Of a stretch of 64,000 nt of DNA, positions 4,802-54,252 are shown piece by piece (within the stretch, counting starts at the first letter, position 1; every line of letters begins with the position of its first letter). The stretch is from Patescibacteria group bacterium. Lineage in GTDB: Bacteria > Patescibacteriota > Microgenomatia > UBA12405. A model generated the notes under the pieces. That model saw nothing but the letters and a program-made list of their open reading frames with translations. It ran no database searches and had not been told where the DNA came from. The stretch spans positions 963 to 64,962 of the forward strand of contig JBMNON010000006.1 in the NCBI GenBank assembly GCA_050943115.1, given 5' to 3'. Both the position numbers and the translations under genes were made by a program.

Positions 4802-5438
4802 AGATTTAAGAGAATACCTAAAAGAACTACTGATGGAAAACGATTATACGGTTGATTTGGTTAGTGATGGCGCTTCGGCCCTAAATTACATTAAGAAAGC
4901 CAAGCCTGATTTGGTAATTTTAGATTTAGGATTACCAGATATAGACGGCAAGTCCGTTTGTTCCAGTATAAAAAAGGACAGTCCTGAGATGCCGGTAATT
5001 ATTTTGACTGCAAGACACAGCACCAGCGATATTGTGTCAGGTCTGAACTTGGGTGCCGATGACTATATATCCAAGCCTTTTGTCGGCGAAGAACTTCTAG
5101 CAAGAATTAAGGTCCAGTTAAGAAACCAAGATAATGACAGCGGACTACTACGGGTCGATGATTTGCTACTGGATAGCAATGCTATGAGAGTTGAGAGAAA
5201 TGGCAAGTCTATAAAATTGACAAAAACCGAGTTTGATTTACTTCGGTATTTAATGTCCAGCAAGGGTAAGGTGCTTACCCGGGAGAATATATTAAACAGA
5301 ATTTGGCTTTATTCCCCTGATATTGAAAGCCGGGTAGTCGATGTATATGTCGGATACTTAAGAAAAAAGATAGACAACGGATATAAGAAGAAACTAATTC
5401 AATCGGTGCGAGGTTTTGGTTACACCATTAAGGAATAA
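4767..5438 (+). CDS. two-component response regulator, OmpR/PhoB family (receiver plus winged-helix)
   Basis: The receiver has Asp residues in ILVVEDDKDL and VILDLGLPDIDG. The C-terminal trans_reg_C region reads LTKTEFDLLRYL...GYLRKKI. A TATAAT box sits 7 nt before the ATG, so the transcript may be leaderless. Confidence 0.85.
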   Translation: MLKKILVVEDDKDLREYLKELLMENDYTVDLVSDGASALNYIKKAKPDLVILDLGLPDIDGKSVCSSIKKDSPEMPVIILTARHSTSDIVSGLNLGADDYISKPFVGEELLARIKVQLRNQDNDSGLLRVDDLLLDSNAMRVERNGKSIKLTKTEFDLLRYLMSSKGKVLTRENILNRIWLYSPDIESRVVDVYVGYLRKKIDNGYKKKLIQSVRGFGYTIKE

Positions 5439-5935: not shown

Positions 5936-6853
5936 TTAGTTGTCTGTTGGTAAGGTAAGAAGAGCTGACAGACTATTGTCCGAATTTTCAAAAAGCAAGA
6001 TGTTTCCGGCAAACATTTGGAGTATTTCTTCGGAAAGGAGAAGACTGACACCAGGACGCGGCAAAGTAATCGGACTTTGGTGTTTTTTTTGGGATAAGCC
6101 AGAGGGATAGATCATTAATTCAATAGCGTGGGGCTTATAAAAGGCAGTAATAATCAAGTTGTTAGTATTTGACTTTTCCGTTAAAAAAATGCAGTAGTTT
6201 GTTAGTGATTGAATAAAACGAGTTTCATCAACGAAGATATAAGGAGATTTGCCCTGTGGAATTTCGATGGTTACATTCGGTAACTTTTTTTTAAGTTTAA
6301 TCAAAAGAGGTGAGAGGGGCAGTCTCGTAAAATTAAGTCTAAGGATGTTGTCGTTTAGGCGGACCAAGTCAGCAAAATCATTGATTTCAGAAACAAGGGA
6401 TTCGATCTTGGCATCGATTTTTGACAGGTGGCTTAGATTTTTTTTATCAAGGTTAGTTTTGGCTAATTTTGAGAAAAGAATTTCGGCAAACAATTTGATG
6501 GTGGTCAGGGGTGACTTTAATTCGTGACTAACAAACTGAATAAAGGACTCCTGAGGCAAGGGCTCAACAGAGGGGTAAACAAGGATTTTTATGAGAAGAG
6601 AATTGTCCCGGAACCTTTCTTCCACATTAATTGCAAAGATTTGATGATCGGACTTTACTACAAAACGATATTTTTCTACGTCCTCTAAAAGGGTGAGGAT
6701 TTCCTGATAATTCTCTTGACTTTGGGGAAATAAATCAAAAATTGATTTGGCATCTTTTATATTTGGGAGAGTGTCGGAGGCAATAGAGTTGTAGGTGAGG
6801 ATCCGGCCGCTTTTGTTTGTTAAAATTAGCCGATTTTTCGTAGAAACAAGCAT
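5936..6853 (-). CDS. PAS-HisKA sensor protein with a degenerate (G-box-less) catalytic domain
   Basis: The H-box FVSHELKSPLTTIKLFAEIL is present and the N-terminus is PAS-like. The C-terminal ~120 aa lack recognisable N, G1 and G2 ATP-binding boxes. Confidence 0.6.
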   Translation of the reverse strand: MLVSTKNRLILTNKSGRILTYNSIASDTLPNIKDAKSIFDLFPQSQENYQEILTLLEDVEKYRFVVKSDHQIFAINVEERFRDNSLLIKILVYPSVEPLPQESFIQFVSHELKSPLTTIKLFAEILFSKLAKTNLDKKNLSHLSKIDAKIESLVSEINDFADLVRLNDNILRLNFTRLPLSPLLIKLKKKLPNVTIEIPQGKSPYIFVDETRFIQSLTNYCIFLTEKSNTNNLIITAFYKPHAIELMIYPSGLSQKKHQSPITLPRPGVSLLLSEEILQMFAGNILLFENSDNSLSALLTLPTDN

Positions 6854-7502: not shown

Positions 7503-8822
7503 TTACCTGGTCCAGATTTCAGAAGTAAGCCCACGAAAATTCTTGATTTCTTGTTGATGAAAACCTAAGTTTTGTAAAATAATAGAATGGTTGAGGCCGT
7601 GGATTTCCTGACCATAGGGAACTACGGTAACTTGATTTTGAGCGGCAAGAGTCTCGGTATTGCGATAATCGATAAGTATTGCTTGAGGAGAATAGTAAGA
7701 TAAAGGGTCGGCGAATGAAGAAATTATTAAGACAGGCTTTTGGGTATCGATGGAAGAGGCCAAATCTTTCCAGTCTTCACGATGTTGATTCCAATCGAAA
7801 AGGTAGAAGAAAGAAAATGATACAAAAATTACAAGAACAAGACTAAGATGTCGCCTATCGGCAAAGGATAAGGCTAAACACATAATTGGAATGAGATACA
7901 AAAAGCGGAAGTACTGGAGCATAGGAGAGGTAAAAGAAAAAAGTGTGGCAATAAATATTGGAAAAAAGAAGAGGAAGAGAACAAGTTTATTTTTTAGAAA
8001 CCCTGTTGATGCGATAAAAAAAGTGACAATAACCGATAGTCCGGAGATTAAATAATAAATAACTTTGGGGTAAAAAGTAACTCTGCCGGCAATAAACTTT
8101 ATGGGTATTAAAAGAAGGTTTTTTAGGGTAACTTGACCTAACACTAGTGTCCAATTTTTTACACTAGAAAGCATTAATGATGAGTTCTTATATTGGGATA
8201 CCAGAAGAGGAAAAATTATAAGTAAGGATATAACAAAACCCGGTAAGAGTTTAGGAAATAGGTATCGGTGATTTTTGCCAAAAAAGACAAAAATATAGAA
8301 GGAAACAATTAAAAACACCGACCCATAAAATGTGAGAAAGGCCAATCCGGAAAATAGATTAAAAAGAAACAAGTGACGGAGCTTAATTTGCGGAGAATTT
8401 AAAATTTTAATGAAGTAAAAAGTTGCGGCGGTCAGTAAAAATACGACCAGAGAATACATACGAATTTCATGGGAATAGTAAATTATCAACGGATTAAAAA
8501 GAAACAGGGATAGGGCCCATACAGCAGCCCTACGATTTTTTATAAATCTGACTAAGTGATATAAGTAAAACCCGGCGGCTAAGGACAAAAATATTGACAG
8601 TAGCCGACCCGAAATGACTGATATTGAAAAAGGGGCGGTCCATAGTTTTAGAAGTAAATAGTAACCTGGGGGGTGGAAATCAGAAGGAGAAAATTTATTT
8701 ATAATTTCAAAGAAGGAATAGTTTCTGACAACATTTAGAGAAATCGCTTCGTCCAGCCAAAGGGACTGATTTATGGCAATAAGGCGGCAAATTAAGGCGG
8801 CTAAGAATACTAACAAAAGCAT
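7503..8822 (-). CDS. GT-C fold membrane glycosyltransferase (GT39/ArnT/PMT-like)
   Basis: It is polytopic, with LWLDEAISL...HPPGYYLL in the first extracytoplasmic loop. That DE plus HPP motif is typical of ArnT/PMT-like enzymes. Confidence 0.6.
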   Translation of the reverse strand: MLLLVFLAALICRLIAINQSLWLDEAISLNVVRNYSFFEIINKFSPSDFHPPGYYLLLKLWTAPFSISVISGRLLSIFLSLAAGFYLYHLVRFIKNRRAAVWALSLFLFNPLIIYYSHEIRMYSLVVFLLTAATFYFIKILNSPQIKLRHLFLFNLFSGLAFLTFYGSVFLIVSFYIFVFFGKNHRYLFPKLLPGFVISLLIIFPLLVSQYKNSSLMLSSVKNWTLVLGQVTLKNLLLIPIKFIAGRVTFYPKVIYYLISGLSVIVTFFIASTGFLKNKLVLFLFFFPIFIATLFSFTSPMLQYFRFLYLIPIMCLALSFADRRHLSLVLVIFVSFSFFYLFDWNQHREDWKDLASSIDTQKPVLIISSFADPLSYYSPQAILIDYRNTETLAAQNQVTVVPYGQEIHGLNHSIILQNLGFHQQEIKNFRGLTSEIWTR

Positions 8823-12878: not shown

Positions 12879-13616
12879 TTACCGTTTCGGTGATTTTGCG
12901 GTGAAGAAATTTTTCAGCAAAGCCAATTCGGACAAAGTTAGATATCGATACTCTTTTGCCTTTAGTTCCCCTAATTTTATCGGTCCGATAGCTATGCGAT
13001 GCAGAGAAATTATGCGGAGGTTGAGTTTGGCAACCATGCGCCTGATTTGGCGATTCCGACCTTCCCTCAGTTGAATCTTGAGATTGGTCCTGCCGTTTTT
13101 TTGAGAAATTACGGAAGTTTGAGTGGGTAGTGTCACCCCATCCTCAAGTTCAACCCCATGTCGTAGTTTGAAAATTTTTTCCGGGCTAATCCGTCCTTCG
13201 ACGGTAACCAGATAAGTTTTGGGCAGGTGGTAACGAGGGTGGGTGGCCTTTAGTGATAAGTCGCCATCATTTGTTAAAAGAATAAGACCACTTGAATCAT
13301 AATCCAGTCTCCCTATGGGATAAAGACGGGCATCGGAGTCAATTAAATCGAGAACTGTTTGCCGATTGTGAGTATCAGTGGTGGAGGAAATTACACCGGT
13401 TGGTTTATTTAGGGCGATATAAATATAATTTGGTTTTTTATGGTTAATATTACGGCCATTTACTTCAACTTGATCCGATAGCGGATCTATCTTTTGACCC
13501 AAGACAGCCTTGCGACCGTTAACGATTACTTTATTTTTTTCAATCAATTCGTCTATGTGCCTTCTGGAGGCGATACCCAAAGAGGCCAGATACTTATTTA
13601 GACGGACTTTATCCAT
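12879..13616 (-). CDS. pseudouridine synthase, RsuA/RluB family, with N-terminal S4 domain
   Basis: The S4 region reads RLNKYLASLGIASRRHIDELI and the catalytic motif is GRLDYDSSGLILLTNDG. Confidence 0.8.
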   Translation of the reverse strand: MDKVRLNKYLASLGIASRRHIDELIEKNKVIVNGRKAVLGQKIDPLSDQVEVNGRNINHKKPNYIYIALNKPTGVISSTTDTHNRQTVLDLIDSDARLYPIGRLDYDSSGLILLTNDGDLSLKATHPRYHLPKTYLVTVEGRISPEKIFKLRHGVELEDGVTLPTQTSVISQKNGRTNLKIQLREGRNRQIRRMVAKLNLRIISLHRIAIGPIKLGELKAKEYRYLTLSELALLKNFFTAKSPKR

Positions 13617-13635: not shown

Positions 13636-14199
13636 TTGGTTTGTTTTGAGCGATTAGGTTTAATAAAATATGTTATGGCCCAATATTTCATCGGCATAGG
13701 GCTTCCTCCAAATGAAGATAAGTTGTTTTCCCTTATCAAGCAACACTTCCATCATAATGGCAAACTTAGTAGTACTCCACACATTACTTTGGCACCCCCC
13801 TTTGAGCTAGAGGATGAGAACGAATTTTTGGAAAATTTTATAAGTTGGGCCAAGAAAGAAAAAGCTTTTATCATAAAGGTAAAGACGGTGGATAAATTTA
13901 TTCAGCCTAAGTACGGAACAGTTTATTTAGCACCCATAAACGACAAGTATTTGCAGGAATTATATGCGAGTTTGATTAAAAGGTTTAATTTGCTTTCAGA
14001 CCAAGGTAGTTTTATACCTCACTTGACGGTAGCTCAAAGAGTTCCCCTAAGAAGGCTAAACGAAATCGAAGATCAAATTAGAAAGATGGATTTAAGTTTG
14101 AAATTGAAAGTAAAACAGCTAAACCTTTATAAGAAAGAAGTGGGTCAATGTTGGAAAAAATTTGCTGAAGTGAGATTAAAAGAGGGAAGGATTAACTAA
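13636..14199 (+). CDS. 2H phosphoesterase superfamily protein (LigT-like 2'-5' RNA ligase / cyclic phosphodiesterase)
   Basis: It carries the two H-x-T/S-x motifs, HITLAPPF and HLTVAQRV. Confidence 0.55.
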   Translation: MVCFERLGLIKYVMAQYFIGIGLPPNEDKLFSLIKQHFHHNGKLSSTPHITLAPPFELEDENEFLENFISWAKKEKAFIIKVKTVDKFIQPKYGTVYLAPINDKYLQELYASLIKRFNLLSDQGSFIPHLTVAQRVPLRRLNEIEDQIRKMDLSLKLKVKQLNLYKKEVGQCWKKFAEVRLKEGRIN

Positions 14200-15042
14200 G
14201 GATGTGGACAGAATATTGATAATCCAAAGAATAAAAGCCACAAAAAGGATTAGGGCCAAGAAGGCAAGAAGGACATAGACAACCCACCCTTTTTTAGAGT
14301 AGATAAATTCTTTTTCCCGGGGAAGAGATTTTAGATGTTGATAATTAAGATAGACAAAGATTGCCGTCAATGGAGCTGTGACTGAGTTAAAAATTAAGCC
14401 AGCTACTGTTTCCACGGTATTTTTGGAATTATCCGAACCATTAAAAACTGATGAGACAATCATTAACAGCAGATACCAGATAAAAATTCTAATAAAGTAT
14501 TCTTTGGAGTGAGATTTTATATAGTACCAACTTTTCTGAATGGCAATCCTGCCGCCAAGACCTTCAACAAATAGAACATAAACACTTAGAGATGAAAAAA
14601 ATAAGAAAGCTACTCCGGGTAATATCAGTAGGAGTATGCCAAGAAAAGTAATTAAGCCGATCAAAAGAGTGAGGGAGAAAAAGCGGCTGACATATTTCCA
14701 TGATTGATTGTAAACTGTTTTTATACTTAATTTTTTGTCAAGGTTGGAGATGTAGTAGATAAGGGCAGAGCCGGACCACAGGTTAACGATGGAGAGAATT
14801 GACAAAAAAAAGACGGCCAAGGGTAGCATAGATAAAATTTGGACATAGTTTCGGTTTAGCAGCAAAGACAGAAAATTTCCAAGGAAGAAAGTAGCGAAGA
14901 AGGCAAAAAAGGCGAGACTAAGGAGGCTGGGTATGGCTGTAATGCCAACCAGGGAAAGCCAGTTTTTTGAAAAGATGGAGAAAGTATTTGAAAAAAGAGA
15001 GATGAGAGGGGGGTAAGGAATGGTGTCCGACTGCGACTTCAT
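14176..15042 (-). CDS. polytopic integral membrane protein of unknown function
   Basis: There are roughly 7 hydrophobic helices and no catalytic motif. Confidence 0.4.
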   Translation of the reverse strand: MKSQSDTIPYPPLISLFSNTFSIFSKNWLSLVGITAIPSLLSLAFFAFFATFFLGNFLSLLLNRNYVQILSMLPLAVFFLSILSIVNLWSGSALIYYISNLDKKLSIKTVYNQSWKYVSRFFSLTLLIGLITFLGILLLILPGVAFLFFSSLSVYVLFVEGLGGRIAIQKSWYYIKSHSKEYFIRIFIWYLLLMIVSSVFNGSDNSKNTVETVAGLIFNSVTAPLTAIFVYLNYQHLKSLPREKEFIYSKKGWVVYVLLAFLALILFVAFILWIINILSTSLVNPSLF

Positions 15043-16688: not shown

Positions 16689-18275
16689 TTGGTAAGAGGA
16701 ATTTTTATTACAACTAGATTCTTACTTGTTTTTGGCAGCCTTTTTACAAAACCAGCTGATAATGAGTGGGTGGAAATTGATTTTAAAAACGAAAAGGCGA
16801 CAATTCCTTTGTGGCTGGGAGATATTGAAACAGGAAATTATCCAGAGTTAAAGAAGGATCTGGAAACGGAAATTCTGATAATTGGCGGCGGTATCGCCGG
16901 GATGACAACAGCATATTTTTTAAGCAAGACAGGTAAGAGAGTGGTGTTGGTCGATGCCGACAGAATCGGGAGAGGGGTAACAGGACATACTACGGCAAAA
17001 ATCACCTCGTTACACCATTTGGCGTATAAAGATATAAAAGAAAAAGTAGGAATTGATAGCGCGAAAAGTTATGCTAAAGCCAGCCAAGAAGCGATTGGAT
17101 TAATCGGCCAAATCGTTAAAAAAGAAAAGTTAAATTGTGAGTTTAAAAAAGCAGATATGCATGTTTATTCCTATGACGGCAGGAGCTTGGGAAAAATTAA
17201 GGAGGAATTTGAAGTATGCCGAGATATGGGACTACCGGCTACTTATATTGAAAAGTCTGAACTTCCCTTCCCCATTAAGGGAGCAATTAAGTTTGATAAC
17301 CAAGCCCACTTTCACCCCTATAAGTATGTTCTGGGTTTGGCTAACACCATCAGTAAAAAGGTGGACATCCGGGAAAGAACCCGGATAGTAGACATGGAAG
17401 AGGGAGATCCGGGTACGGTTATTACAGACAAGGGTTTTAGAATTAAAGCAAATGAGGTAGTGGTGGCCAGCCACTATCCGGTTTTTGACCAAAAGGGTAA
17501 ATATTATGCCCGCCTTATTCCGGACAGGGATTATGCTATGGCCATTAAGTCACCAACTGAGCTGGATGGGATGTTTATAGATACTTCAGGAGATTATTTT
17601 TCGATACGGCCTTATGGAAAGCTACTAATTGTAGGCGGGATCACTCACCGGACCGGCACTGTTTCTGACACCAAAGAATGCTACCGAAAATTGCTAAACC
17701 AGGCGGAAAAAAGGTTGGGGGTAGAAACTGTAGAGTACAAATGGTCAACCCAGGACAATTTTACGGCAGACAACCTGCCTTATATCGGCCGGATCACCAA
17801 GGATAACCGACATGTTTACGTGGCTACCGGGTTTAACGGCTGGGGAATGAGTAACGGTACAACGGCCGGGAAACTTATTGCTGACATGATATCGAGGGGG
17901 GCAAGTCCATATATTGAGACTTTTGATCCATCGCGATTCAGCTTAAAGGCGGAGGGGAAAAAGTTGCTGGAATTTAATACGGGGACAGCCAAGAGATATA
18001 TTCAGGGAGCGGTAACTACGGGTGAAATAATTAGTAATATAAAAAAGGGGCAGGGAGGAATTGTGGAAAAGGACGGGCAAAAATATCTGGTTTACAGAAA
18101 CGAATCAGGCAAGGTATTTGCCCTACACCACCACTGTACCCACATGGGCTGTGTTCTGTCCTGGAATAGTGCCGAAAAATCCTGGGACTGCCCCTGCCAT
18201 GGTTCGAGATTCAGTTACGAGGGAAAAGTAATTCACGGTCCGGCACTTAAAAACCTGAAAAAAGCCGAAATTTAA
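16689..18275 (+). CDS. FAD-dependent oxidoreductase fused to a C-terminal Rieske [2Fe-2S] domain (YhfW-like)
   Basis: The N-terminal dinucleotide-binding motif is IIGGGIAGMTTAYFL. The C-terminal Rieske ligand motifs are CTHMGC and CPCHGS. Confidence 0.75.
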   Translation: MVRGIFITTRFLLVFGSLFTKPADNEWVEIDFKNEKATIPLWLGDIETGNYPELKKDLETEILIIGGGIAGMTTAYFLSKTGKRVVLVDADRIGRGVTGHTTAKITSLHHLAYKDIKEKVGIDSAKSYAKASQEAIGLIGQIVKKEKLNCEFKKADMHVYSYDGRSLGKIKEEFEVCRDMGLPATYIEKSELPFPIKGAIKFDNQAHFHPYKYVLGLANTISKKVDIRERTRIVDMEEGDPGTVITDKGFRIKANEVVVASHYPVFDQKGKYYARLIPDRDYAMAIKSPTELDGMFIDTSGDYFSIRPYGKLLIVGGITHRTGTVSDTKECYRKLLNQAEKRLGVETVEYKWSTQDNFTADNLPYIGRITKDNRHVYVATGFNGWGMSNGTTAGKLIADMISRGASPYIETFDPSRFSLKAEGKKLLEFNTGTAKRYIQGAVTTGEIISNIKKGQGGIVEKDGQKYLVYRNESGKVFALHHHCTHMGCVLSWNSAEKSWDCPCHGSRFSYEGKVIHGPALKNLKKAEI

Positions 18276-19534
18276 CTATTACCAAAAACAAACTGCTCCA
18301 AGTCCTTGACTCCACCAAAACTAATACGGTCAGGAACTAAGCCGGAGGTGTCTATCATCCTGGCCGGAGTAATAATAAAATCTCCCCATTTTTCGTTGAT
18401 CTTATCCAGAGCAGAAGTCAGATGGGATTTTTTGTTAATATCACCAAATAGATCCAGCTGGAGAGACGGATCGCGGGAGAGGTTAAAACAGGATACGGAA
18501 AGATTGGCAACCGGAAAACGATAGGGAGACTTGAGTAAGATTTTAAAAGCTCTTTTGTAGATATCGATAGAATCAAAAAGATCACGGTCAAGGGTAGTCC
18601 CCTGATGCCAAAAGGAATGGTTTTTGTAGAGAATGGCAACATGGATACCGCGGGCACGATAGCCGGTTTTCCTCATGCGGCTGCCCAGTTTCTGGACTAG
18701 TTTGTGAAGAATGGGAGATAAATCCTGAGGAGTAGAGGCGCTAACGGGTAAGGAGTACATGTGACCAAAACTTTTACGGCCCAGTTCGACGTCATCAATC
18801 TCCCAGCCACGAAGGCGAAGATACCAGTAATAGGCAGTAACGGAGTGAAGGGCTGATTTGATATGACTAATCGAGGCATTATAAAAATCCATGACAGAGT
18901 AAATAGAGACTGAATTGAGACGGGCAGTAAGGTTGCGATCAATGCCATGAAGATCGGGCAGAGAAAGCTTCTGATAAATTTCCTGAAAATTGAAAACATC
19001 AATGGTATTCAGACCATCAGGCTTTTTTAGATTCGAAGCGATTTTGGCAAGAAAACGATTGGGGCCGATACCGATAGAAACAGTCAGCCAATCCCCTATT
19101 TCTGATTTAATCCTTTGTTTGATTTCTAGAGCGACAACTTCCATACCCTTGGCAAATCCGGGAAAACCTTCAAGGTCGATGATAAATTCATCAATGGATT
19201 TGGGAATTACTACATTGGTGTACTGATTAAGCAAGTTTTTCAATTTAATGTGGACATGGCGGTATTTCCAGGGATCAGTGCCAAGAACTATCAAGTCAGG
19301 ACAAAGGAGCTGGCCTTCCCTGACCCTCATACCAACCTTAACACCCTGGACTTTGGCTTCGACGGAGGGAGCCAGAATACAGCCGGAAGGAGTAGTGTAG
19401 GCAGCTACAGCAACGGGCCTACCCCGAAGAAGAGGGTTGGCTTGTTGTTCAATTGAGGCAAAGCAGGAGTTGAGATCAATGTGCATAATAGTGGGGATTT
19501 TGGAGTTAAAGGGCAAATTAACCGGGTAAGCCAT
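18272..19534 (-). CDS. dinB: Y-family DNA polymerase IV (DinB/UmuC family)
   Basis: It has MHIDLNSCFASIEQ and full Y-family thumb and little-finger regions. The ORF track starts at a TTG at 19576, but an AAGGAGG sequence 6 nt before the ATG at 19534 supports that start. Confidence 0.85.
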   Translation of the reverse strand: MAYPVNLPFNSKIPTIMHIDLNSCFASIEQQANPLLRGRPVAVAAYTTPSGCILAPSVEAKVQGVKVGMRVREGQLLCPDLIVLGTDPWKYRHVHIKLKNLLNQYTNVVIPKSIDEFIIDLEGFPGFAKGMEVVALEIKQRIKSEIGDWLTVSIGIGPNRFLAKIASNLKKPDGLNTIDVFNFQEIYQKLSLPDLHGIDRNLTARLNSVSIYSVMDFYNASISHIKSALHSVTAYYWYLRLRGWEIDDVELGRKSFGHMYSLPVSASTPQDLSPILHKLVQKLGSRMRKTGYRARGIHVAILYKNHSFWHQGTTLDRDLFDSIDIYKRAFKILLKSPYRFPVANLSVSCFNLSRDPSLQLDLFGDINKKSHLTSALDKINEKWGDFIITPARMIDTSGLVPDRISFGGVKDLEQFVFGNS

Positions 19535-19778
19535 CGGAAACCTCCTTGAGACGCCAGAATAAGTTATCAGTATCAAGAATCAATCGGAAAAAGATATTGT
19601 CGGCAGACACCGAGAAAACATGGTAAAGGGTTCGGCCTGAACGGTAAGTGTGATGATAGCCAAGTTTTTTGATGAGATATTGGCGGCCATCCCAGATAAC
19701 GGTGACGGGCAAAACCTGGCGGGTTTTATGATTAAATTCGAGGGAGACGGAAACCGGCACGTCGATAATCTGAATCAT
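19518..19778 (-). CDS. small hypothetical protein translationally coupled to dinB (its stop overlaps the dinB start region)
   Basis: ORF track only. The dinB Shine-Dalgarno lies inside its 3' end. No motifs recognised. Confidence 0.35.
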   Translation of the reverse strand: MIQIIDVPVSVSLEFNHKTRQVLPVTVIWDGRQYLIKKLGYHHTYRSGRTLYHVFSVSADNIFFRLILDTDNLFWRLKEVSDGLPG

Positions 19779-19929
19779 AGTTTAGTTATACCCGAATAAA
19801 ACCCGAAGTCAATGAAGCAAAAGCAATTATTACCTTCTTCTTACAAATTGCCAACACATTTCATATTTGGTTTTTTTATCCTATTTTTAGACTAAAGTAA
19901 GCTATTAGTAATTCAACAAGGAGAATTTT

Positions 19930-20367
19930 ATGGATAGAAACGATGATGTCATGAGAAAAGTCGGATTAGCATTTTTGGCAGGCGCGGCCACGGGCTGGCT
20001 TGTCAGTATATTTATGCCCGAAGACACCAGAAATAAAGTAAAAAATGAAATTGAAGACAAGACCAGTTATCTTAAGAAAGTGATGACAGACCCGGAAGAA
20101 AGAGAAAGGATTAAGGATGTTTTTAGTGAAAAGACCCAAAATACCAAAGAAAAGCTAGAGGATGTAAAGAACGATATTGCCAACAGATTAGCGGCTTTAA
20201 AGGGCGGTGCCCAAGATATTGATAAAAGGAAATATATGAGGGCAGTTCAGGATAGCATCGAGGATATGAGGGAGGGAAATATACTACCGGAAGACGAGCT
20301 AAACCGGCTTCGCGATTATCTGGAGGGAGACTATGAAAGAATCAGAAGAAGAATGAGGAGGGCTTAA
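19930..20367 (+). CDS. YtxH-like (DUF948) membrane-anchored coiled-coil protein
   Basis: The N-terminal VGLAFLAGAATGWLVSIFMPEDTR is followed by a charged helical region. Confidence 0.45.
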   Translation: MDRNDDVMRKVGLAFLAGAATGWLVSIFMPEDTRNKVKNEIEDKTSYLKKVMTDPEERERIKDVFSEKTQNTKEKLEDVKNDIANRLAALKGGAQDIDKRKYMRAVQDSIEDMREGNILPEDELNRLRDYLEGDYERIRRRMRRA

Positions 20368-20631
20368 ATGAGCCTACAGGAAATGTTTTACCTCCTAGGG
20401 ATAATTTACATGTCTTTCTGGATTTTATTTTTAGTGTTTCTGGCTATTGCTGCTTACAAACTTAAACAGTCCCTGGATGAAGCAAAATTTGAAATCGAAA
20501 GGAAAAAAGCTCAGGCAGAGAATTATTTAAAGAAATTAGCTAATGCTAAGGTTTTAGGGGTGCTTCCGATAGTCCCGGTTGCTGGATATTTTGCCAGAAA
20601 AATTTTTAAGGGAATTGCCAAGAAAATATAA
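20368..20631 (+). CDS. small membrane protein
   Basis: TAA and ATG abut the upstream gene. There is one TM helix and a coiled-coil tail. Confidence 0.35.
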   Translation: MSLQEMFYLLGIIYMSFWILFLVFLAIAAYKLKQSLDEAKFEIERKKAQAENYLKKLANAKVLGVLPIVPVAGYFARKIFKGIAKKI

Positions 20632-20646
20632 ATTGACCTTTGTTTT

Positions 20647-21832
20647 ATGAGCGGAGGATATAAGAAGATAATGCAACAACTGTTTGAAGTGGAGAATAAA
20701 TTATCAGGCAAGGAGTACTTATTATCGATTTATTATCCAACATCGGGCTTTAATAAAGAAAGAGTAAAATTGGAGCTAAAGTCTTTTATCCTGTCCAATT
20801 TCAGAAGGGAGAGTAACTGGCCAAATTTAAATAAACTACACCACCAAATCGTGGAGGGAATTAGCGAGAATATCAATTACTTAGAAAAAGTAGATAAGGG
20901 ATTGGCAATTTTCCTCAAATTTAACCCCAAAGAACTGAAGAAAGGCAGACAGCAAGAAATCGGCGAAGAAGATATATATATCAATATTGGGAAAAGAGCC
21001 GGAGGAGGAGTTTTTTGTAGGAAAAACTTTTAATTACGACCAGTTGCTTTGGCAGGAATATAGGGCTGAGAATGTTCTGCTTTTGAACATTAAACCGGAA
21101 GAAGCGAATGTATATAAGCTGGAAAACGGAGAGCTGGATAGAATTGAAAGTATGAAAAATTCTTTTGTTTCGGATAGGGAAAATGAGTATTTGGAGCGGT
21201 TTTCCCCCACCGGTTATAAAAACGTGGTTCATGGAACCGGTTCTGATAAGTGGAAAAGGGATTTGGAAGATAGAATTGTCGGCTTTTTAAACCAGATTAT
21301 AGAAGCCATAAGAAGAGGGGATAAATATGATGGTGACTATAACGGTTTGGTGATAGTTTATTCCGACAATGTTAAAGATGTGATTAAAAAACTGGTGGAT
21401 GAGCTGGTAAAGATTATGCCGACATTTGACAAACCAATACTTATTAACAAAAATATCCCCAATGAAAATCAATTGAAAGAAGAAGTTATCAGGGCGATAG
21501 AAGATCACAAGAAAAAGAATAAGATGGAGTATCTGACCTGGGTGATGGAGGAGGACCGGGATAACTTTGTTGAGGGATGGAAAAGTGTTTTGAAAGAATT
21601 GAGAAGGCAAAAAATTGAGACATTGTTTTATAAGGAAGGATCTAGCAAACAAGGTTATTTGATGGATGAGGAGCTGCTTTATTTAAATCCAGTAGAGGGA
21701 GCGAATAATTTAAGGAGGTTGAATAATATTGCACCGTGGCTTCTTCGAAATGTTCTAGAGTACGGTGGTAAAGTAATGGTGTTTGATAGGGAAGAAGAAG
21801 TGCCGGAGGTGGCGGCTAGGATCAGATACTAA
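20647..21832 (+). pseudogene. eRF1/Pelota-superfamily (bacterial eRF1-like) protein whose reading frame is split at a T6 homopolymer (ORFs 20647-21033 and 20987-21832)
   Basis: The downstream ORF has a central-domain-like HGTGSDKWKRDLEDRIVGFLNQIIEAI (compare eRF1 HGRGGQSALRFARLR..., with GGQ absent). Its C-terminus GGKVMVFDREEEVPEVAARIRY resembles the domain-3 ending GG..ILRY. Deleting one T from ttttttg at 21011-21016 fuses the two ORFs in frame. Confidence 0.45.
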
Positions 21833-21833
21833 T

Positions 21834-24800
21834 TTAGGAAGAAGCTTTTACATTGAGGCTTCTCTCCTCCACCAAGCGCCGGCGCAGGGAAAAGACAAAG
21901 AAGATGAGGACCAGGAAGTTGAGGGCCGAGGGATAAAGCAGGTAGGAGTAGGCCACGGAGACGATAGCCAGGAGGGTGAGGTGGGAGTAGTAGCGCCGGA
22001 GGAAGGCATCGAGGTGAGGCAGGAGACGGTCGAGAAGACGGGGGCGGGACTGGGGCCGGGCGGTTAGCTCCAAATTAAGTTCCAGGCGAGTGGCCTTAAA
22101 GAGGAGGGGCTGGGTCAGGGGTGAGTAGTTAGCCTTTTTGACGGTCAGGGTGTAGGAACCGGGAGCCGGATTGAGAGTGTAAAAGCCGGAGGCATCAGTC
22201 AGAGTGGAGTAAATGCGGGAGCCGGAAGTCAGGGTGACGAGGGCTTTGACCAGGGGCTGGTGGCGGGCATCAGTCACCTTACCCCAAAGGAGCTGCTTTT
22301 GGCGCTTGAAGCCAAAGAAGAAGGAGACGGGAGCCAGGAAGAAGTAGAGGGTTTGCTGGAGAAGGAGGCGGAGACTAGTCCAAAGAGACAGGGAGGCGGA
22401 TGAGGCCGAGGACAGGGCCGACAGGCTGGTTTGGGCGGCTTGGGCCACCAGGTAGGCAGCCGAGGTAACAGCAGCGGCTTCGGAAGTAGTGGCAGCCACC
22501 TGACCCAACTGGGAGGCGACGGGAGTCTCCTGAAGCTGGTAGCGGGTGGAGTCAATGGTGGTGGTGATAGTCTGGAGAGTATGGGTCAGGGGTTGAGGCA
22601 GAGCGGCAAGCAGAGGCGGAGTTACTTCGGGGACGATCTGAGCCAAGGGCGGCTCAAGGCTGCCGGGAGGCACCTGGTTATCAGTGCCAACCAGAGCGGT
22701 GGTGGGAGTGGGCTGGCTGGAATCGGCCAGGGCAGTGGTCGGGGTGGCAGCCGAAGCCTGGGGGGCGGGAGTCAAACTATCAGTGGCGGCAATGGCGGAA
22801 GAAGTGGGAGTAGGCTCAGAGGCGGAAGTGGTAGGCGTGGGAGTGGAGGTGGCAAGAGGAGAAGAGGTCGGGCTGGCTTCCGGGGCGGGGCTGGTATCCC
22901 CTACTTTGGTAGTGGGTGAAGGCAGAAGAGAAGCGGTGGGAGTCGGGCTGGGATCGGGGGCGGTAGTGATAGCGGTAGGCTGGCTAAGGGGAGTGGGAGT
23001 GGTTGAAGTAATGGCGATGACAGAGCTGGTGGGCGAAGGTTGGGAAGGGGTTGAAGTCGGTTGACCGGGAGCTGGAGTGGCAGTCGGTTCTCCGCCGCCA
23101 ATGGCCGGAGTGGTGGTAGGCTGGCTAAGGGGAGTGGGAGTGGCTTGAGGCAGAGGGGTGGGAGTAGCTTTGCCTTTTTTGGCCAGATAAACTTTGGTAG
23201 CAAAGTCCTGGCGGGAAGAGACGGCCAGGGTACGGCCCTGGGAAGTGGCCTGATAGTAGTAGGTGGTGTCGGGGTTGAGATGAGTGAGAGTGACGATGTG
23301 GTTTTTGGTGAGGGTGTCGGAAGCTACCGAATAGGCCAGGTCGGTGGAGGCGGCAAAGTGAAGAAGAGTGGTGGCCGGGTGGTTGGTGGACCAACGGACC
23401 TGGGCGGTGGTGTCGGTGATCTTGATAACCCGGAGGTTTTTGATCTGGGTGGAGTTTTTGGCCAGCCAGGTCTGGGCCTTGTCGAGGATGTTATCCTTTA
23501 CGGCCTGGGAGACTTTGGCGGGAAGTTTAGTGAGGGTGTCGGTAATGGTGTCAACGATGTGGCTGATGTCAGCGCCACTTCTCTTGGCAATGTTTTTGAT
23601 GGTGTCGGCAATGGTTTGGGCCAGGGAGTTGGCTTTCTTTTCGGCCTGGGCCGGTTTGGCGGATTGGGCCTGGGCGATTTTTTGTTCGATGAGGGCCCGC
23701 TCTTCGGCGGTGGCCGAGGACAACTTGGTATCCAGGAGGGCCTGAAGGTCGGCCAGTTCGCCGGGGGTAAGGTTGAGGGCCAGGGTGGCAAACTGATGGC
23801 GAGCGTCATAGGTGTAGGTCTTACCGTGGGACATGACCTCGTAGTAGTAGGTGGTATCGGGATCGAGGTTACTGAGGGTGATGGTGTGGTTTTTGACCAG
23901 GAGATCGGACTGGACATCGGCACCGTAGTCGTAGGAGGCGCCATAGTTGACCTTGGAGGTTGAGGGGTGGTTGGTTTTCCAGGAGATGAGGGCAGAGTTG
24001 GTGGCAATTTTGGTGGCTTTAACATTGCTAATCTTGGTGCGGGAGTTTTCAAACCAGGTGTTAAACCAGGACTGGGCTGAGGAGAGGAGGGAGTCCTTGA
24101 AGGCCTGAGACAGGTAGGGAATGGAGTTGATAAGGTCAGTGAGGGCGCCCAGGAAACGGGCGGCCGGCTCCCGGCCCAAATCGGCCAGCTTTTTCCAGAT
24201 GTTTTTAAGGGTATCGACGGCCTTGGTAGCAAAGTTGTTCCAGGCTGATTCCTTGTTACTGTCCTTGGCTTTAACAATAGTGTCAGCTTTCTTTTGAAGC
24301 TGCTGCTTGTCCTGGGCGGAGGCCGAGGAGAGCTTGTCATCGATGAGGGTTTCGATTTGCTCTTCTTCCTGAGGGGTAAAGTCACCGACTTTGAGAGTAA
24401 AGGTGATGGTTTTACTGGTATTGCCGGCAGCGTCGGTGGCAACAAGGTCAAAGCGGTAGGAAGCAGGAGGCAGGGGTTCCTGGGGAGTAAAGCTGAAGGC
24501 GGCACACTTGTCGTCGGTCTGGAGGCTATTGTCGGTGACAGGGTCACCACTCTGGCACCAGGCGGCAGAGGCGGCCAGGTTAAGGGTGGCAGTGGAATGA
24601 AGGGAATCGAGCCAGTAGGGATTGAGGCGAGTGATGGAAAGCTCCAGGGTTCGGGGGCCGGCGGCAACTTTGGTGTTCTTGGAGTCACCCTTGAGCAGAT
24701 CCTTGATCTGACCCTGAAGGCTGGGCGTCAGGTTGGAAGTGGAGTAATCAGATTGCTTGGGGTCAAAGCTGAGGTTGTTGAGAGAGGTGAGAGTCAGGAG

Positions 24801-27800
24801 GGGGTCGGTGGTATCGACAAAGACGGTTTTGGAAGAGGACGGCTGGCCTTGGCTGGTGTTGGTCTTGAGGGTGTAGTGGCGGGCGCCTTCCTTGAGAGCG
24901 CCCTTGTTTTGATTGCCGGTCCAGGCCGCGGCATCGTGGGTAGTCAGGGTAACAGTATTGTTGTCCTCGGTGCCATCGGAGAAGCCGGAGTAGCGGGCGG
25001 TGTATTTATCCTGGCGGTAGTCGGAGGTGCCGGAGGCGGGAATGCCAGTTAAACTCCAGTCACCCTTGGAACCATTGTCAACTTCCAGATCAAAGGAGGA
25101 GATACCATGGGCCGTGTCAGAGGACAAGGTCCAGGAGAAGGCCGGACGGGAGGAGTTGGTGTAGGAGTGGTGGGCGGGAGAGTCGAGGGAGACGGTAGAG
25201 ACGGCGGGAGTGGGAGTCGGGGTGGGAGTAGGAGTGGGAGTGGAGGTGGGGGTAGGAGTAGGAGTGGTGGAGGGAGCCGGAGGCTGGGAGGGGGTGGTGG
25301 GAGTGGGAGTGGGAGTGGGAGTGGAGGTGGGGTCGGGGGTTGGAGGTTGCGGATCAGTGCCGGCAACATCACCAATATTGAGTGTTGTAACCGAATACAT
25401 ACCCAAATCAGCATTAACAGGGTTACTTAAGCTTAGGAAAAGAGTTTTGGGAGTTTCGGGTTCAGGATTAAGAATAGAAACGGGTATGGTAGCGTAATAG
25501 GAATCGGAGGGGATAGTGGCAGTACCGGAAGTAAGAAGATAGTCAACCCCATTCTCAGCCGTACCACCAGTAATCTCATAATCGACAGTAACGGGTGAAG
25601 CAGATTTGCCGTTTTGAAGGATTAATTTGATGTCTGTCTCCCCTACTCCCTGAGGAGAAGCAGTATAAGGATGGGCAAACTCAATACGGGGAGGAGCCGT
25701 ATTGCCTATACCATCGCCAAAAGTAGCAAATGAATATTGGGATACTTGGGCGGGCAAGATTTCACTAAATTCTCCACCTACATGAACAGTGTTGTTGTTT
25801 ATAAGAAGTTCATAAACATCACAATAACCATTCTCAGGGGACGGATCCCATGAAGTGGCCGCTCCCGGTGCTTGGATAACACAATCACTTTGCTCAACCA
25901 AAACTACATCATCCAGCCAGCCTTTGTCTTCACCTACGCTAGAGGAACTGTCTTTACCATACAGCCAAGTAAAAGTATGATCGCCGGCATCAATGTTATA
26001 GGTAAATTCCGCCCAATCGGCACTCCCGGAGATACGATGCGTATAGCTGGTTCGCGAACAGGAGGGATTGTTGTGGCAAAAAACAAGATAGTCATATCCT
26101 GACTCGGAGCTAACTTTCCATGAAAATGATAAAGAAGCAGCTTGATCCGCAGTGACATCATAGGAAAGCGATGAAGATTGATTATGGGTAATAACACCTG
26201 ACTCGGCAGACATAGCTCCATCAGATGAATAGGTAGAAGAATGAGACCAGAGCACATCACCACCGCTACTCCAATTTTCCGGGGGGAAGACGTCACCTTC
26301 AAAAGATTCGGCGGGTCCGAGAGGCTCCAGGGGAGGACAGGTGGTACCGACCATGGTGGGCAGGAAAACTTCTGCAGCACAATGCCTTGATTGGCCGCCA
26401 GCATTCATAAAGTAACCTCCGGCTAAAATGGAATCCCGGGTCAGGTCAATAGTATAGACCGTGCTATCAATTTGAGGATCCCATTCTACAGCTGAACCAT
26501 CTTCTGTACTGACTGCAACCAAATAATATTTGTCGTCCTCTTGGTTAAAATCGGGAAAGTCGCCAGCGATATAAAGAATATCTTCGCTTGCAGCCAAATC
26601 ATATACTCCATCGTAGTTGCCACCGGCATCACCGGGGTACCAACTATCAAGCTGACCCGAGGCGATATCAAAAGCAGCAATGTTATATCTGGTGTAGTCA
26701 TCAATATAACTAAAATCGCCGCCCACATAAAGACGCGACCCGTGGGGAAGAATTTTATTTACCAATCCCCAGACAGAAGGGCTCCAAGATGTGGGAATAG
26801 AGTTGCTTCCTTCAAAGGAAGCTAACCCCTCACGGTCATATCCATTAATTTTTTCAAAATATCCTCCGATATAAATAGTATCTCCGGCTACGGCAATGTC
26901 GTAAATATAATCATCAGAATAGGGACTCCAAGATGTGGTTTCACCACTGTCAACGTCTATGGCGCCAAGATAATTTCTTGTCTGGTTGTTTATTGATAAA
27001 AACTCTCCGCCAACAATAATGTCATTTCCTTTACGGGAAATGGCATTAACCATACCACGGACAACAGGTAACCAGGATTCGTCCACTCTGCCGTCGGGAC
27101 CAATTCTAACCAAATTGTTAACTATAGTGCCTCCCGCTGAATTAAAATCCCCTCCCATATAAACCCTGTCGCCGTCAAATGCAAAGCTGTTAACATTCAT
27201 GCCATATTCAATATGGGGTGCCCACGGTGTAAGCTGCCGGGTTGACAGATCAAAGGCAGAGGCACTATGTCGAAAGTCACCATTCATATCCCAATAAACG
27301 CCGCCGACATATAGCAGACCGTCGTTTATGGCCAGATTAACAGTCCAACCCCAATATTTGTTATAAGGACTCCAGTCACGGGCTTCACCCGTAGAAGCAT
27401 CTACCGCAGCTAATTTATACAGTTGACGACCGCCAATTTCGTTGAAATGACCGGCAGCGTAAATATCGGATTCATAAGCGGCAATTGAACGAACCTCGTA
27501 ATTTGGCGCCGGTTGAAAATCGGGAATGGCTACGCCGTTTAAATCAAAAGCTGCTAAATTTTTTATTGGGGTTGAGCCATTGACTGTGGCAAAAGTACCG
27601 CCTACGTAGATATTCCCGCTGGCACCAATATCTATTGTATTTACGATATAGCTGCTGATATTGGGATTCCAATGGGTAAGATAAACCGAGCTATCGACAC
27701 AGGGGTACTGTGTATATTCGTATACTCTAACATTATCAAGCCAACCTCTGTTTGCTCCCGTAGAGTACGTTGACGTTCTCTGGTGCTTCCAAGTGATGGT

Positions 27801-30800
27801 GTGTTCTCCGGCTGAAATTGGAACAAAAACCTCCCTCCAATCCTGGTTACCAGAGATTCTCTGGTGAATGGGCACGTCGGAATATGTACAGTCAGGGTTA
27901 TCAATACAATAGAACAAGTAACCTCCTGCGCTATAAGTACTTACTTTCCAATTAAACTTTAAAACACCATCTTTTGAAAGATTTACCGTGGTTTGCAGGT
28001 AGGATGTTTGGCCGTTTGAAATAACCGGTGACTGGGCTGATTGGCTACCATCAAAAGCTGAAGTGCCTATTCCCCAATTTAAATTGCCCCCGGTGATCCA
28101 GTTATCCGGAGGGAAAGTGACCCCTTCGAAGGATTCTTCTACTACCGTCGAGTCGTTGACACAGTCGGGGCATGAGGGAGTCCAGACCGAGGCTGCTCGA
28201 TTTCTTATGGCAGTAGTACCAACGGAAGCGGTTACTGAAGTAAAATATCCGCCCAAGTAAAGCTGTTTTCCGTCAGAGCTAAGTTTTAGACTTTTGATGT
28301 AACTATTTGTTGTCGGCGTCCATTCTGTTATTAAACTACCATCTGCAGCGTTAAGTGCGGCCAATCGACTTCTCGATTGGCCATCAATTTCAGTGAAATA
28401 ACCACCGACGTAAAGAATTGAATTATCGGGGCTAAGGGCTAAAGAATAAACATCATCGTTGGGGTTAGGACTCCAATCGGGATCAACCGAGCCGTCGGGA
28501 AGAACATGGATTAAGTTGATTATTTCACTTGGTGAGTAGTTAATGTGGTTGAACCAACCGCCAACGTACCAGCCCCCATTCCCATCCGGGACTATGGTGT
28601 AAACTGAATCGCCATAGCTACTAGGGTCATCTAAATGGGGAAAATTACCAGTTACTTTGCCTGTGTTTTTGTCGATAAGTGCGGCTTTCCCGGTAGCCGG
28701 AGCGAACAACTCGAACTCTCCACCAATATAGGTATAACCTTCCGATTCATATAAGGCTTGTGCTTCATAAACAAAACCACTTTCCTGTTCGGGTCCGCGG
28801 CCAAGCATGTAATTATGATTGGAAAATTGCATGGTAGGGGTCATGTCTGTCCCGGTCACAGGTAGGGGTATGGATGCAGCACTAGGTATGGGGGGCGGAG
28901 TAGGAGTAGCTGTAGGAGAAGGGGCTAGGGTTATTGTCGGCCAATAAATAGGATTGGAACAGTCAAGTTCGGATTCAGGTACATAATCATTAAACTGGGC
29001 TAAGCTTTTGCAGGAGCTTCCGTCAACGGTAATAAATTCACCTGCCAGAAATATTGTATTGCCAATAAATTTTGCAGTATTAATAGTGCTACTTATCGAT
29101 GGTTTCCAATCGGCAACCGAATAATCCGACATATTTATTATGGCCGCACGAGTAGCTCCAACCCCGGCAATATTCCAAAAAGAACCGGCAACGAGCAATT
29201 GTGATTCGTCAGAGTTAAATGACATGGATTTAACAGTACCGTTATTAGAATCGGAGACAGAATCCAATAAGTTACCGTCTGAATCTACCACAACAAAATC
29301 AGGACGGTACAGCCTGTTTACATGACTGAATTCTCCACCAATAAATATTTTAGAACCATCGGAGGTAGGTAGGATAGAGTAGACATAAGAGTCGGAGTTC
29401 CCGGATTCTATCGGGCCGGGGTACCAATCGTTGAGAGTACCGGTGGTGGCGTTAACGGATCCAATACGGGTACGGTATTCACCAGCCAAAGCTTCAAATT
29501 CACCACCGATATATAAATTATTGTTATTATAAGCTAGGGCGAGTACCCTGTCGGCAGCGTCAGGAGCCCAGTCAAGCAAAGAGTTGTCTGATGTGTCAAA
29601 AGCAGCTAAGCGATAACGAACTTGGTCCCCTACCCTTGTAAAATCTCCACCTACATACAAAACCGATTTATCATGATTAAACTCGAGTGTCCTAACGGTG
29701 CTATCTAGAAGAGGATTCCAATTTACTATAGTTTGAGAACAAACATCAAGGGCGGCAAGTCTAGAAAAATATTGAGGACCTTCAAAGCTAGTAAAAGAGC
29801 CGCCGACATAAACTATGTTATCTTTGGCAGCTATTGAATACACGTATGAAAAAGGATTTGGGGCCCAATCTTTGGCAGCTCCGGTGACGGCATCAAGAAT
29901 AGCAAAATAACGCCGGTAAACTCCACCTACCGATTTAAAATCACCGCCAATAAACAATTTGGAGGAATCCGGGTCGTAAAAAAGTTCCTGGACATAACCG
30001 TCAGCCATTGGGGGATTAATAATTCCTGAACCATCCGATTTATTTATAACAAAAAGATGGTTGAATATTATGCCAGTCCCAGTGGAGGCATTATCAAAAC
30101 GGCCACCGACATAGATTTTATCCCCGATGCTTTCAAGTGCATATCCGTAGAAGTAATTACTGGTTGGCAAGACTGGATTCCAGTCGAGTGTTTCTCCAGT
30201 CAGGCTATTAACAGCAGCGACCCTATTTCTAGAAAGACCACCAATGGTAGTAAAAGAACCGGTTAACCAAACTTTATCATTGTCATATAAAATGTCATAA
30301 ACATAACCATTTGGTGCCGGGTTGAAGTCAAGAGCAGTTGCCGTTGAAGTGTTAATGGCCGCAAAATAAGTCCTAAGTTGGCCTCCGATATTTATATCCC
30401 TAAAGTCCCCGGCTAAATAAATAACGCTATCGTCATTATTTAAGTCGATGTCAGCAATGTTATATTGATAAACTGAGCTTATGGGATTGAAGTCAGTGGG
30501 CTGACCTGACAAATCAATCTGGGCTAAACGATTACGGGTGACACCACGGATGGTGGTGAAATTTCCAGCTACATATATTAATTCTCCGGTACTATTGGTA
30601 GTAATTGCCCTAACGGTGTTGTTGGAGTTGGGGTTCCAAAGCCTGGCTAAACTGGTGCCGCCACCGCATGGATAACTTTCATACTCATAAATCCGGACAT
30701 TATCCAACCAGCCACGGTTGGCACTGTAATTCAAGGTCGAGGTTCTCTGATTCTTCCAGGTAAGAGTATGACTACCGGCGATAAGGGGAACGGTAACTTC

Positions 30801-31670
30801 TGCCCAATCTGTAGTCCAATTTATTCTGGCAGTATAACCGGAGCTATAAGTGCAAGAAGGATTATCAACACAAAAATAGAGATAGTTACTTGAAGCAGCG
30901 CTGATTTTCCAAAAAAACTTTATCTCACCATCTTTGGCCATATTGACAGTGGTTTCCAAATGGGAGGTTTGGCCGCTTTGTAAGATAGGTGTTTGGGCTG
31001 ATTGGCTGCCATCAGTTGCCGAGGTACCGATCTCCCAATTGGCATGTCCACCGGTTATCCAACCATCCGGTGGGAATGTTCCTCCCTCAAAAGATTCTGT
31101 GACAGAAGAAGATACCGAGCATGTTTCCGGCTGAGGCGTGGTTCGCAGGGCAGCAATACGGTTTCTGGTAGTAGAACCATTATCTACAGTTGTAAAACTA
31201 CCACCTGCATACAAAGTTGACTTATCAGGGCTGAGTGTTAATGCTCTGACTTCATAGTTTGGGTTGGGGGCCCAACTGGTATCGATGCTACCGTCGGCAA
31301 GAATATGGGCGAGATTTTTGATATTAGTACCTGGTATTGCCGGGAAGGTACCGCCAACAAACCAACCACCACTACCATCCGGAACGGAAGCGTAAATTGA
31401 ACCGTTTCCGATTTTTAAAAAGTTAGGTGTTACGCTACTACTGCCAATATCATATAAAGCACCAGCGCCGGTTTGAGGTCCAACATATTTAAAATCACCC
31501 CCCAGGTAGACATTATTACCGTCAACTTCCATATCATAAACCTTGCCATTAGTAACCCAGAGATTACTGTTTGGTGTGGTTGATTGGGCGTTGGTAAAAG
31601 AAGAGGAAAAGAAAAAAAGTAACAATAGGAATATTGATAAAAATAGCGGCTTTAATTTTTCTAAATGCAT
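21834..31670 (-). CDS. giant (3,278 aa) secreted, membrane-anchored surface protein: delta-60-type beta-propeller repeats, 3 MAM-like modules, Calx-beta, 2x(helical plus FN3), PT/S/A tract, CarboxypepD_reg-like domain, C-terminal TM plus RRR tail
   Basis: There is a signal peptide [29 protein letters not shown]. Dozens of ~55-60-aa repeats follow the pattern YVGGxFTxVxGxxRxxLAAxDxxxGxxxxWxP. Three copies of an ESFEG(G/V/D)xFPP(D/E)xW... module are present. A Calx-beta-like segment reads [18 protein letters not shown]...[12 protein letters not shown]. Two FN3-like segments end in DTTYYY. The C-terminus has a hydrophobic helix followed by RRRLVEER. Confidence 0.85.
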
Positions 31671-54248: not shown

Positions 54249-54252
54249 AGTT

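Follow-up and report, generated by a model that had tools for sequence, protein, structure and literature searches.

A gene of the Balon type, probably split by a two-nucleotide deletion and not by a programmed switch, in a Patescibacteria genome

A stretch of 64,000 nucleotides (nt) from a Patescibacteria group bacterium (NCBI GenBank assembly GCA_050943115.1, contig JBMNON010000006.1; the whole stretch is referred to here as the window) carries two overlapping open reading frames (ORFs), which raises the question of whether they are two genes or one and, if one, what has broken it. ORF A (20647–21033, forward strand) starts with ATG and encodes 128 amino acids (aa), and ORF B (20987–21832, forward strand) starts with TTG and encodes 281 aa in the +1 frame relative to ORF A; the overlap of 47 nt between different frames, which was given in a preliminary description of this DNA, was reproduced with the same coordinates. 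Comparison with relatives suggests that the two ORFs are pieces of one gene, of the type encoding the ribosome hibernation factor Balon, split by the loss of two T's, and it is quite probable that this break is an ordinary recent knockout, or else an error, and not a programmed switch.

Against a single unbroken ortholog of 393 aa (P0002), ORF A corresponds to residues 1–112 and ORF B to residues 115–395, a correspondence beyond what chance would give, and on this sequence comparison the two are pieces of one gene. The 5' part of that gene (20647–20982, forward strand) holds native codons 1–112, or the first ~80% of the N-terminal (decoding-centre) domain; it matches residues 1–111 of the ortholog and also the intact allele P0153 described below, and the position of the start codon is common to the ortholog. 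The 3' part (20981–21832, forward strand, frame B) holds native residues 113–395, comprising the remainder of the N domain, a middle domain in which an HGTG loop replaces GGQ, and a C-terminal domain ending in ARIRY. The out-of-frame tail of ORF A (20983–21033, forward strand), which reads NIGKRAGGGVFCRKNF and then TAA, is not native protein, and nothing like it occurs in the ortholog, in the intact allele or in the family.

Both frames are open, and the NCBI metagenome-assembled genome carries the fragments as separate genes (ACOX6N_03000 and ACOX6N_03005), which would fit a true split gene whose polypeptides, 1–128 and 115–395, are made separately and cooperate. This is extremely unlikely, however, as the cut interrupts a beta-strand of the N domain instead of falling between domains: the product of ORF A, with 112 native and 16 out-of-frame residues, ends within the strand predicted at residues 110–115 by AlphaFold2 (AF2). 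ORF B would also require an internal TTG without an upstream signal, the next in-frame ATG being 55 codons further on (Shine-Dalgarno analysis is uninformative here, with even a loose match in only 8 of 30 genes). Among the 150 best relatives, 131 have a length of 332 aa or more, the short ones span assorted segments of the profile with no recurring split at this position, and both the ortholog and a sister strain are unsplit. The two locus tags are therefore better annotated as one pseudogene or one mis-sequenced gene.

Intact comparators are few. A search of 5.8 billion proteins returned only ORF B itself and P0002 (53% identity over 99% of the fused query), whose locus is syntenic with the window in the order DAO-Rieske, DinB-like IMS, 86 aa, YtxH-like, 89 aa, 393 aa. 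An alignment-based scan of genomes returned only the ortholog contig already known, and neither the protein nor an exact DNA pattern across the junction led to further strains in metagenome scans. A cluster look-up led to P0153, encoded on NODE_192236 (L006, 1080 nt) of the independent ENA assembly ERZ773285, with ~98% DNA identity to the window. Orthologous loci had been proposed as a place to look for an uninterrupted frame, and both P0002 and L006 read through. The ortholog contig (L002/L005; GCA_964544275.1, CAZIZX010000007.1; 5.2 kb) is deposited as 'uncultured Gammaproteobacteria bacterium', and is probably mis-binned, since it shares gene order with the Patescibacteria window.

The preliminary description placed the break at a run of six T's (T6; 21011–21016, forward strand), from which the removal of a single T would fuse the frames. 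The arithmetic of this proposal stands, as one T fewer in T6 does give a continuous reading frame of 394 aa, but homology puts the break elsewhere. Frame B is open from the stop codon at 20936–20938, and any 1-nt deletion or 2-nt insertion up to 21030 fuses the frames, so that T6 is merely one mechanical option among many (20939–21030). Agreement of frame B with the ortholog begins as early as 20981, upstream of T6 (SILGKEPEEEFF vs. VILSKEPENQFF), and T6, which encodes the in-frame Phe-Phe F123 F124, pairs without a gap with a T8 in the ortholog in the nucleotide alignment, with FF conserved in P0002. In both nucleotide and protein alignments, the sole frame-changing gap relative to the ortholog is one of 2 nt within the GATATATATATC tract. 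The same tract is where L006 departs from the window, having GATATATATATTTCAATATTGGG in place of GATATATATATCAATATTGGG, with the same T6 in both (aligned as window GATATATATA--TCAATATTGGG vs. L006 GATATATATATTTCAATATTGGG); in the region 20950–21020 the deleted form reads GATATATATATCAAT and the intact form ...ATATTTCAAT, and the protein of L006 continues through the junction as ...EEDIYISILGKEPEEEFF....

Because L006 has TT at this point and shares T6, the lesion is placed, by sequence comparison, as a deletion of 2 nt (TT) between T20981 and C20982 on the forward strand, 30 nt upstream of T6 and at the 3' edge of an (AT)5 tract (20972–20981, forward strand); the gap in the ortholog alignment falls in the same tract. 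A more general caution follows from this locus, namely that the site of a frameshift need not be the nearest homopolymer.

Whether the deletion is a real mutation is weighed by several lines of evidence. A different assembler was used for the Logan assembly of SRR31066035, and there the window is matched at 100% identity over 17987–21890 (3904 nt), deletion included, on an unbroken contig of 22.8 kb that runs through the site. The sequence 3' of the break differs from that of L006 by 13 synonymous and 6 non-synonymous changes in frame B, and the ratio of non-synonymous to synonymous substitution rates (dN/dS) is 0.107 in this frame, as against 0.86 and 1.78 in the other two, which indicates that frame B was protein-coding until essentially now and that the lesion is either very recent or an error. 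With two T's lost at the 3' edge of (AT)5, translation would halt at 21033, and the simplest reading of the sequenced allele is a null.

That the deletion is instead a sequencing or consensus error, the real gene being intact (ATT TCA) and two T's having been lost beside the AT tract, is doubtful. In its favor, a near-identical sequence with TT exists in L006, the strong purifying selection in frame B and the freedom from secondary lesions both fit an intact gene, and the site is the window's only (AT)5 tract, a context prone to polymerase slippage. Set against this, the identical deleted sequence was obtained by two different assemblers, and the loss of 2 nt in a run of three T's (T3) is atypical of short-read consensus errors. 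The remaining overlapping ORF pairs on the same strand in the window are complete, separate genes, with no further broken gene among the pairs tested despite the presence of 194 A/T homopolymers of at least 6 nt, and the assembly therefore does not look error-prone. The null allele is thus probably a loss-of-function mutation that arose very recently and became fixed in the population sampled; failing that, a base-calling or consensus error is possible.

The position of the lesion also bears on the proposal, made in the preliminary description, of a phase-variation switch, in which slipped-strand mispairing at the (AT)n/T-run would toggle a hibernation factor within the population. In-frame and out-of-frame alleles do occur in nearly identical backgrounds, and the break adjoins the only dinucleotide repeat of at least five units in the 64-kb window, where 0.125 would be expected under a first-order Markov model. 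The two alleles, however, have the same number of repeat units and the same T6: in L006, too, (AT)5 is present, with TTC after it where the window has C, so that the difference is TT in the T3 run and not a repeat unit. Tracts known to drive phase variation are far longer than (AT)5 or T3, and in simple-sequence-repeat contingency loci the alleles differ in the number of whole units of a long repeat, which is not so here. The ortholog has no repeat at this position and, at the level of assembly, a single unbroken contig identical to the window crosses the site in the Logan data. Phase variation is very unlikely on these grounds.

Hardly any probability attaches to the other mechanism that had been suggested, a programmed +1 (or −2) ribosomal frameshift, or transcriptional slippage, at T6 or upstream, giving the full-length protein. 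The 47-nt overlap would permit it, as a +1 shift anywhere in 20939–21030 leads to a product of ~394 aa, and ORF B is still under purifying selection. A shift at T6, however, would swap the conserved SILGKEPEEEFF for NIGKRAGGGVF, and reading 20939–20985 by eye revealed no known +1 slippery or stop-codon motif. T6 is also too short for efficient transcriptional slippage. Programmed-frameshift genes (prfB-type +1 and dnaX-type −1) have a conserved break and a slippery site, whereas here the ortholog, the sister strain and the family are unbroken: the relatives listed are single ORFs, with every relative examined in frame, and at the DNA level this applies to the ~98%-identical strain and to the 53%-identical ortholog. 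The interruption is thus read as a plain 2-bp deletion, with no new recoding or switching mechanism.

The question of what the gene encodes is answered by the restored protein of 395 aa and by a family profile and alignment of 108 sequences. HMMER against 1.84 billion representative proteins gave 164 relatives, nearly all of which are single proteins of 360–400 aa spanning the whole profile, with every close relative a single protein of ~390 aa; the named ones belong to Patescibacteria, Candidatus Dojkabacteria and Mesotoga infera (the last with the intact member WP_169698487.1), and 'hypothetical' is the label on almost all. Pfam matched the window protein with eRF1_3 only, weakly and below threshold (E 0.003–0.005), and no Pfam baeRF model matched it even at E ≤ 1. 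Among the 108 relatives (E ≤ 0.01), 12 matched baeRF_family3 (best E 2.7e-7), nine eRF1_3 and two baeRF_family10, the first and last of these families being also those that match Balon (baeRF_family3, 105.7 bits, with the sequence rebuilt from the profile alignment) and Msmeg1130 (baeRF_family10, 117.6 bits). When the 108-sequence profile was compared with PDB sequences, the match to Balon (8rd8_B; profile 61–392, chain 53–369) had an E of 2.5e-10, followed by the Balon Msmeg1130 (9.4e-5), Pelota (3j15_A, 2.6e-4) and eRF1 (0.1–0.4).

The predicted structure agrees with this. AF2 with the two-sequence alignment gave a model with a predicted local distance difference test score (pLDDT) of 41, which was unusable, and the 108-sequence alignment was used instead, giving a model of the restored protein with a pLDDT of 92.3 and a predicted template modelling (TM) score of 0.87. 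In Foldseek against the PDB, the first-ranked match of this model was Msmeg1130 Balon (E 3.6e-18, TM 0.69/0.72), then Balon of Psychrobacter urativorans (TM ~0.6), with Rv2629 also appearing, then aRF1/eRF1 (TM ~0.42–0.47) and Pelota/Dom34. The top five matches are all Balon chains (TM 0.58–0.72), and eRF1 and Pelota reach at most 0.49. The aRF1, eRF1, Pelota and Dom34 structures match the model over ~400–440 aligned columns (E 1e-14 to 1e-7), and the model is accordingly predicted to have the three-domain eRF1/Pelota fold, with an N domain, an RNase-H-like middle domain and a C-terminal eRF1_3/Pelota domain. In sequence and in structure, it is closer to Balon-type proteins than to aRF1/Pelota.

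These results bear out the first reading of the gene as a bacterial eRF1-like member of the eRF1/Pelota superfamily, including the fold expected of the fused protein in profile and structure searches, for which Balon is the best match. The middle domain, which had been aligned by eye and described as having lost GGQ, is aligned in the same way to Balon by the hidden Markov model (HMM), with window HGTGSDKWKR...FL opposite Balon TGDGGSDRS...FF, and the family consensus at the GGQ position is H-G-T-G-(S/E)-D-K..R. The C-terminal ending in ARIRY, also likened by eye to this superfamily, is likewise supported by the profile alignment, in which GGKVMVF...VAARIRY lies opposite GGKAVF...IALVTRY of Balon. 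NIKS is found in none of the 108 members and GGQ anywhere in only five. The remark that bacterial eRF1-like proteins are rare is outdated, as homologues of Balon occur in about 20% of representative bacteria (Helena-Bueno et al., 2024, Nature; PMC10901736) and a catalogue of the baeRF-1 families dates from 2019 (Burroughs and Aravind, 2019; PMC6514570), with CPR (candidate phyla radiation) among the figure abbreviations of the latter study.

The locus is therefore considered to be one gene, a member of a divergent Balon/baeRF-1 branch of the eRF1/Pelota superfamily that falls outside the current Pfam models. With Balon (structures 8RD8/8RDV/8RDW, and 8V9J-L for the mycobacterial homologues Msmeg1130/Rv2629) it shares the three-domain aeRF1-like architecture, the best structural matches, the profile match over the middle and C-terminal domains, the absence of NIKS and GGQ, and an ending of the form ...GG.V.....A..(L/I)R(Y/W). 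Unlike Balon, it has an N domain that is not recognizable by sequence, its own consensus at the GGQ position and a window copy that is frameshifted, and the identity in structural alignments is only ~11–14%. No conserved HP motif is evident in the family (H in 25% and P in 11% at positions 55 and 56), this motif being one of the features described for Balon, where it contacts A1492/A1913, together with a lasso loop around A2602, a bL27 trap and a C-domain beta-hairpin for EF-Tu(GDP) (PMC10901736). With the baeRF-1 proteins the clade shares its nature as a bacterial offshoot of aeRF1 and a degenerate catalytic loop, but it is not caught at threshold by the twelve Pfam baeRF models; the clade from Patescibacteria, Dojkabacteria and Mesotoga would be, judging from sequence, a further divergent baeRF family or an outlier of family 3. 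With aRF1/eRF1 and Pelota/Dom34 it has in common the fold, the domain order, the weak eRF1_3 match and the match to Pelota 3j15_A, and it differs from them in lacking NIKS and GGQ, in lower TM scores (0.23–0.47), in its bacterial host and in its likely partner, which, going by Balon, would be EF-Tu rather than eRF3/Hbs1.

Balon binds the ribosomal A site independently of mRNA, with EF-Tu, in stress (PMC10901736), and the baeRF-1 proteins were predicted by their authors to be non-catalytic blockers of the A site (PMC6514570). Homology with Balon and Msmeg1130/Rv2629 makes it most likely that the intact protein of 395 aa is a ligand of the A site without catalytic activity, which would park ribosomes under stress, with the N domain at the decoding centre, the middle domain with its HGTG loop beside the peptidyl-transferase centre, and the C domain in contact with EF-Tu. 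As it has neither NIKS nor GGQ, no stop-codon reading or peptide release is expected. In many relatives, the protein would probably act jointly with a short RaiA/HPF protein, a pairing that is known from the published systems: the Balon gene is 'most frequently adjacent to RaiA' (PMC10901736), and baeRF-1 genes have a recurrent operon link to HPF (PMC6514570). In three of seven loci of relatives (L010, L011 and L012), a Ribosomal_S30AE gene (RaiA/HPF, ~100 aa) starts 2–3 nt after the stop codon of the family member, as in Balon and baeRF-1 neighborhoods, and HSP20 lies close by in L011 only. Two Ribosomal_S30AE genes (2555–2857 and 3832–4146, forward strand) are present within 1.6 kb downstream of the Balon-type gene in L012, separated by a YggT-like gene and a gene of unknown function.

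In a further relative's locus, L009, an ORF of 101 aa (6192–6497, forward strand) begins 4 nt after the gene for P0004, in the position of the RaiA/HPF genes of L010–L012; it has no Pfam family match, and by its position may be a very divergent RaiA-like partner. P0004 itself is named 'hemerythrin' by one source and looks misannotated.

In the window, the Balon-type gene comes last in a tight unit of three genes that is also found in the ortholog. The first is a gene for a YtxH-like membrane-anchored stress protein of 145 aa, of coiled-coil type (19930–20367, forward strand; its Pfam match to YtxH, E 1.1e-5, falls short of the gathering cutoff). This gene is placed identically in ortholog loci L001–L004, and its stop codon abuts the start of the second gene, which encodes a protein of 87 aa with a hydrophobic N-terminus (20368–20631, forward strand). 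The 87-aa protein has no Pfam family match, and its position is kept in L001–L004 by a protein of 89 aa. The three genes are likely an operon; a scan for promoters and terminators in 19500–22000 gave a result no better than that for shuffled sequence. The YtxH-like and hydrophobic 87–89-aa genes thus immediately precede the Balon-type gene in the window (19930–20631, forward strand) as well as in the ortholog locus (L001, 9291–9996). In L010, too, a gene with a weak likeness to YtxH is located ~2.5 kb from the family member.

A number of findings weigh against reading the locus as a hibernation gene of the Balon type that has lost its frame by a real deletion. The window protein is below threshold for every Pfam and NCBIfam model, with nothing in NCBIfam, and a profile of the N domain only gave chance matches to PDB sequences, Balon not being found. 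Ribosome binding, including that with EF-Tu under stress, is predicted from homology only. No RaiA gene is adjacent in the window or the ortholog, where the neighbors are the YtxH-like gene and the gene for the small membrane protein, and a phmmer search of the window with the RaiA of a relative was negative; this neighborhood is unlike that of Balon. The sole intact near-identical allele is on a contig of 1080 nt, with 2x coverage and a mosaic look: in its alignment to the window (20525–21610), there is 1 substitution in 20525–21075 and there are 21 in 21076–21467, and its final ~135 nt are unlike the window and the other loci, giving a product of 282 aa without the C domain. L006 may represent a chimeric assembly or a recombinant strain, or may carry a second truncation of independent origin. 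The Logan run, finally, is possibly the same read set as the JGI/NCBI assembly, and an error in the window keeps some probability.

If the Balon-type reading of the family holds, ~160 clusters of 'hypothetical' proteins from Patescibacteria, Dojkabacteria and Mesotoga, missed by Pfam and NCBIfam, become assignable to the Balon/baeRF-1 family, and Balon-type hibernation is extended to bacteria of the candidate phyla radiation, whose dormancy biology is poorly known. A more far-reaching combination of these observations is unlikely, namely that a distinct, unannotated Balon-type branch engages the ribosome differently, that parking is membrane-tethered here, and that the intact and broken alleles constitute, in an ultra-small episymbiont, a natural polymorphism that turns hibernation on or off. 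Such a branch may comprise the ~160 clusters from Patescibacteria and Thermotogota, with the HGTG loop, no evident HP motif and usually a paired RaiA of ~100 aa. Membrane-anchored ribosome-inactivating proteins, YqjD/ElaB/YgaM, are described in a preprint (bioRxiv 10.1101/2024.08.16.608256), and probable co-transcription with the YtxH-like and 87-aa membrane-anchored proteins hints, by analogy, at a tethering like that of YqjD/ElaB.

Downstream, a giant ORF of 3278 aa (21834–31670, reverse strand) runs towards the Balon-type gene, and the stop codons of the two lie 1 nt from each other. The giant ORF contains long linkers rich in Pro, Thr and Ser and repeated beta-propeller-like segments, and the many long spurious ORFs in its other frames suggest a composition very unlike that of the remaining window.

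Many genes of the window have an ATG start 6–8 nt after a TAnAAT-like box (GGTAAAAT, GGTATAAT, GCCATAAT or TACAAT), examples being those at 4767–5438, 5936–6853, 7503–8822, 12879–13616, 14176–15042 and 54253–55413. This arrangement suggests that mRNAs with no leader or a very short one may be widespread in this Patescibacteria genome. Two genes for DNA-damage tolerance are present in this small genome, one for a DinB-type translesion polymerase (IMS and IMS_C; 18272–19576, reverse strand), which lies two genes upstream of the operon, and one for an SRAP (YedK-like) abasic-site sensor (53619–54308, reverse strand).

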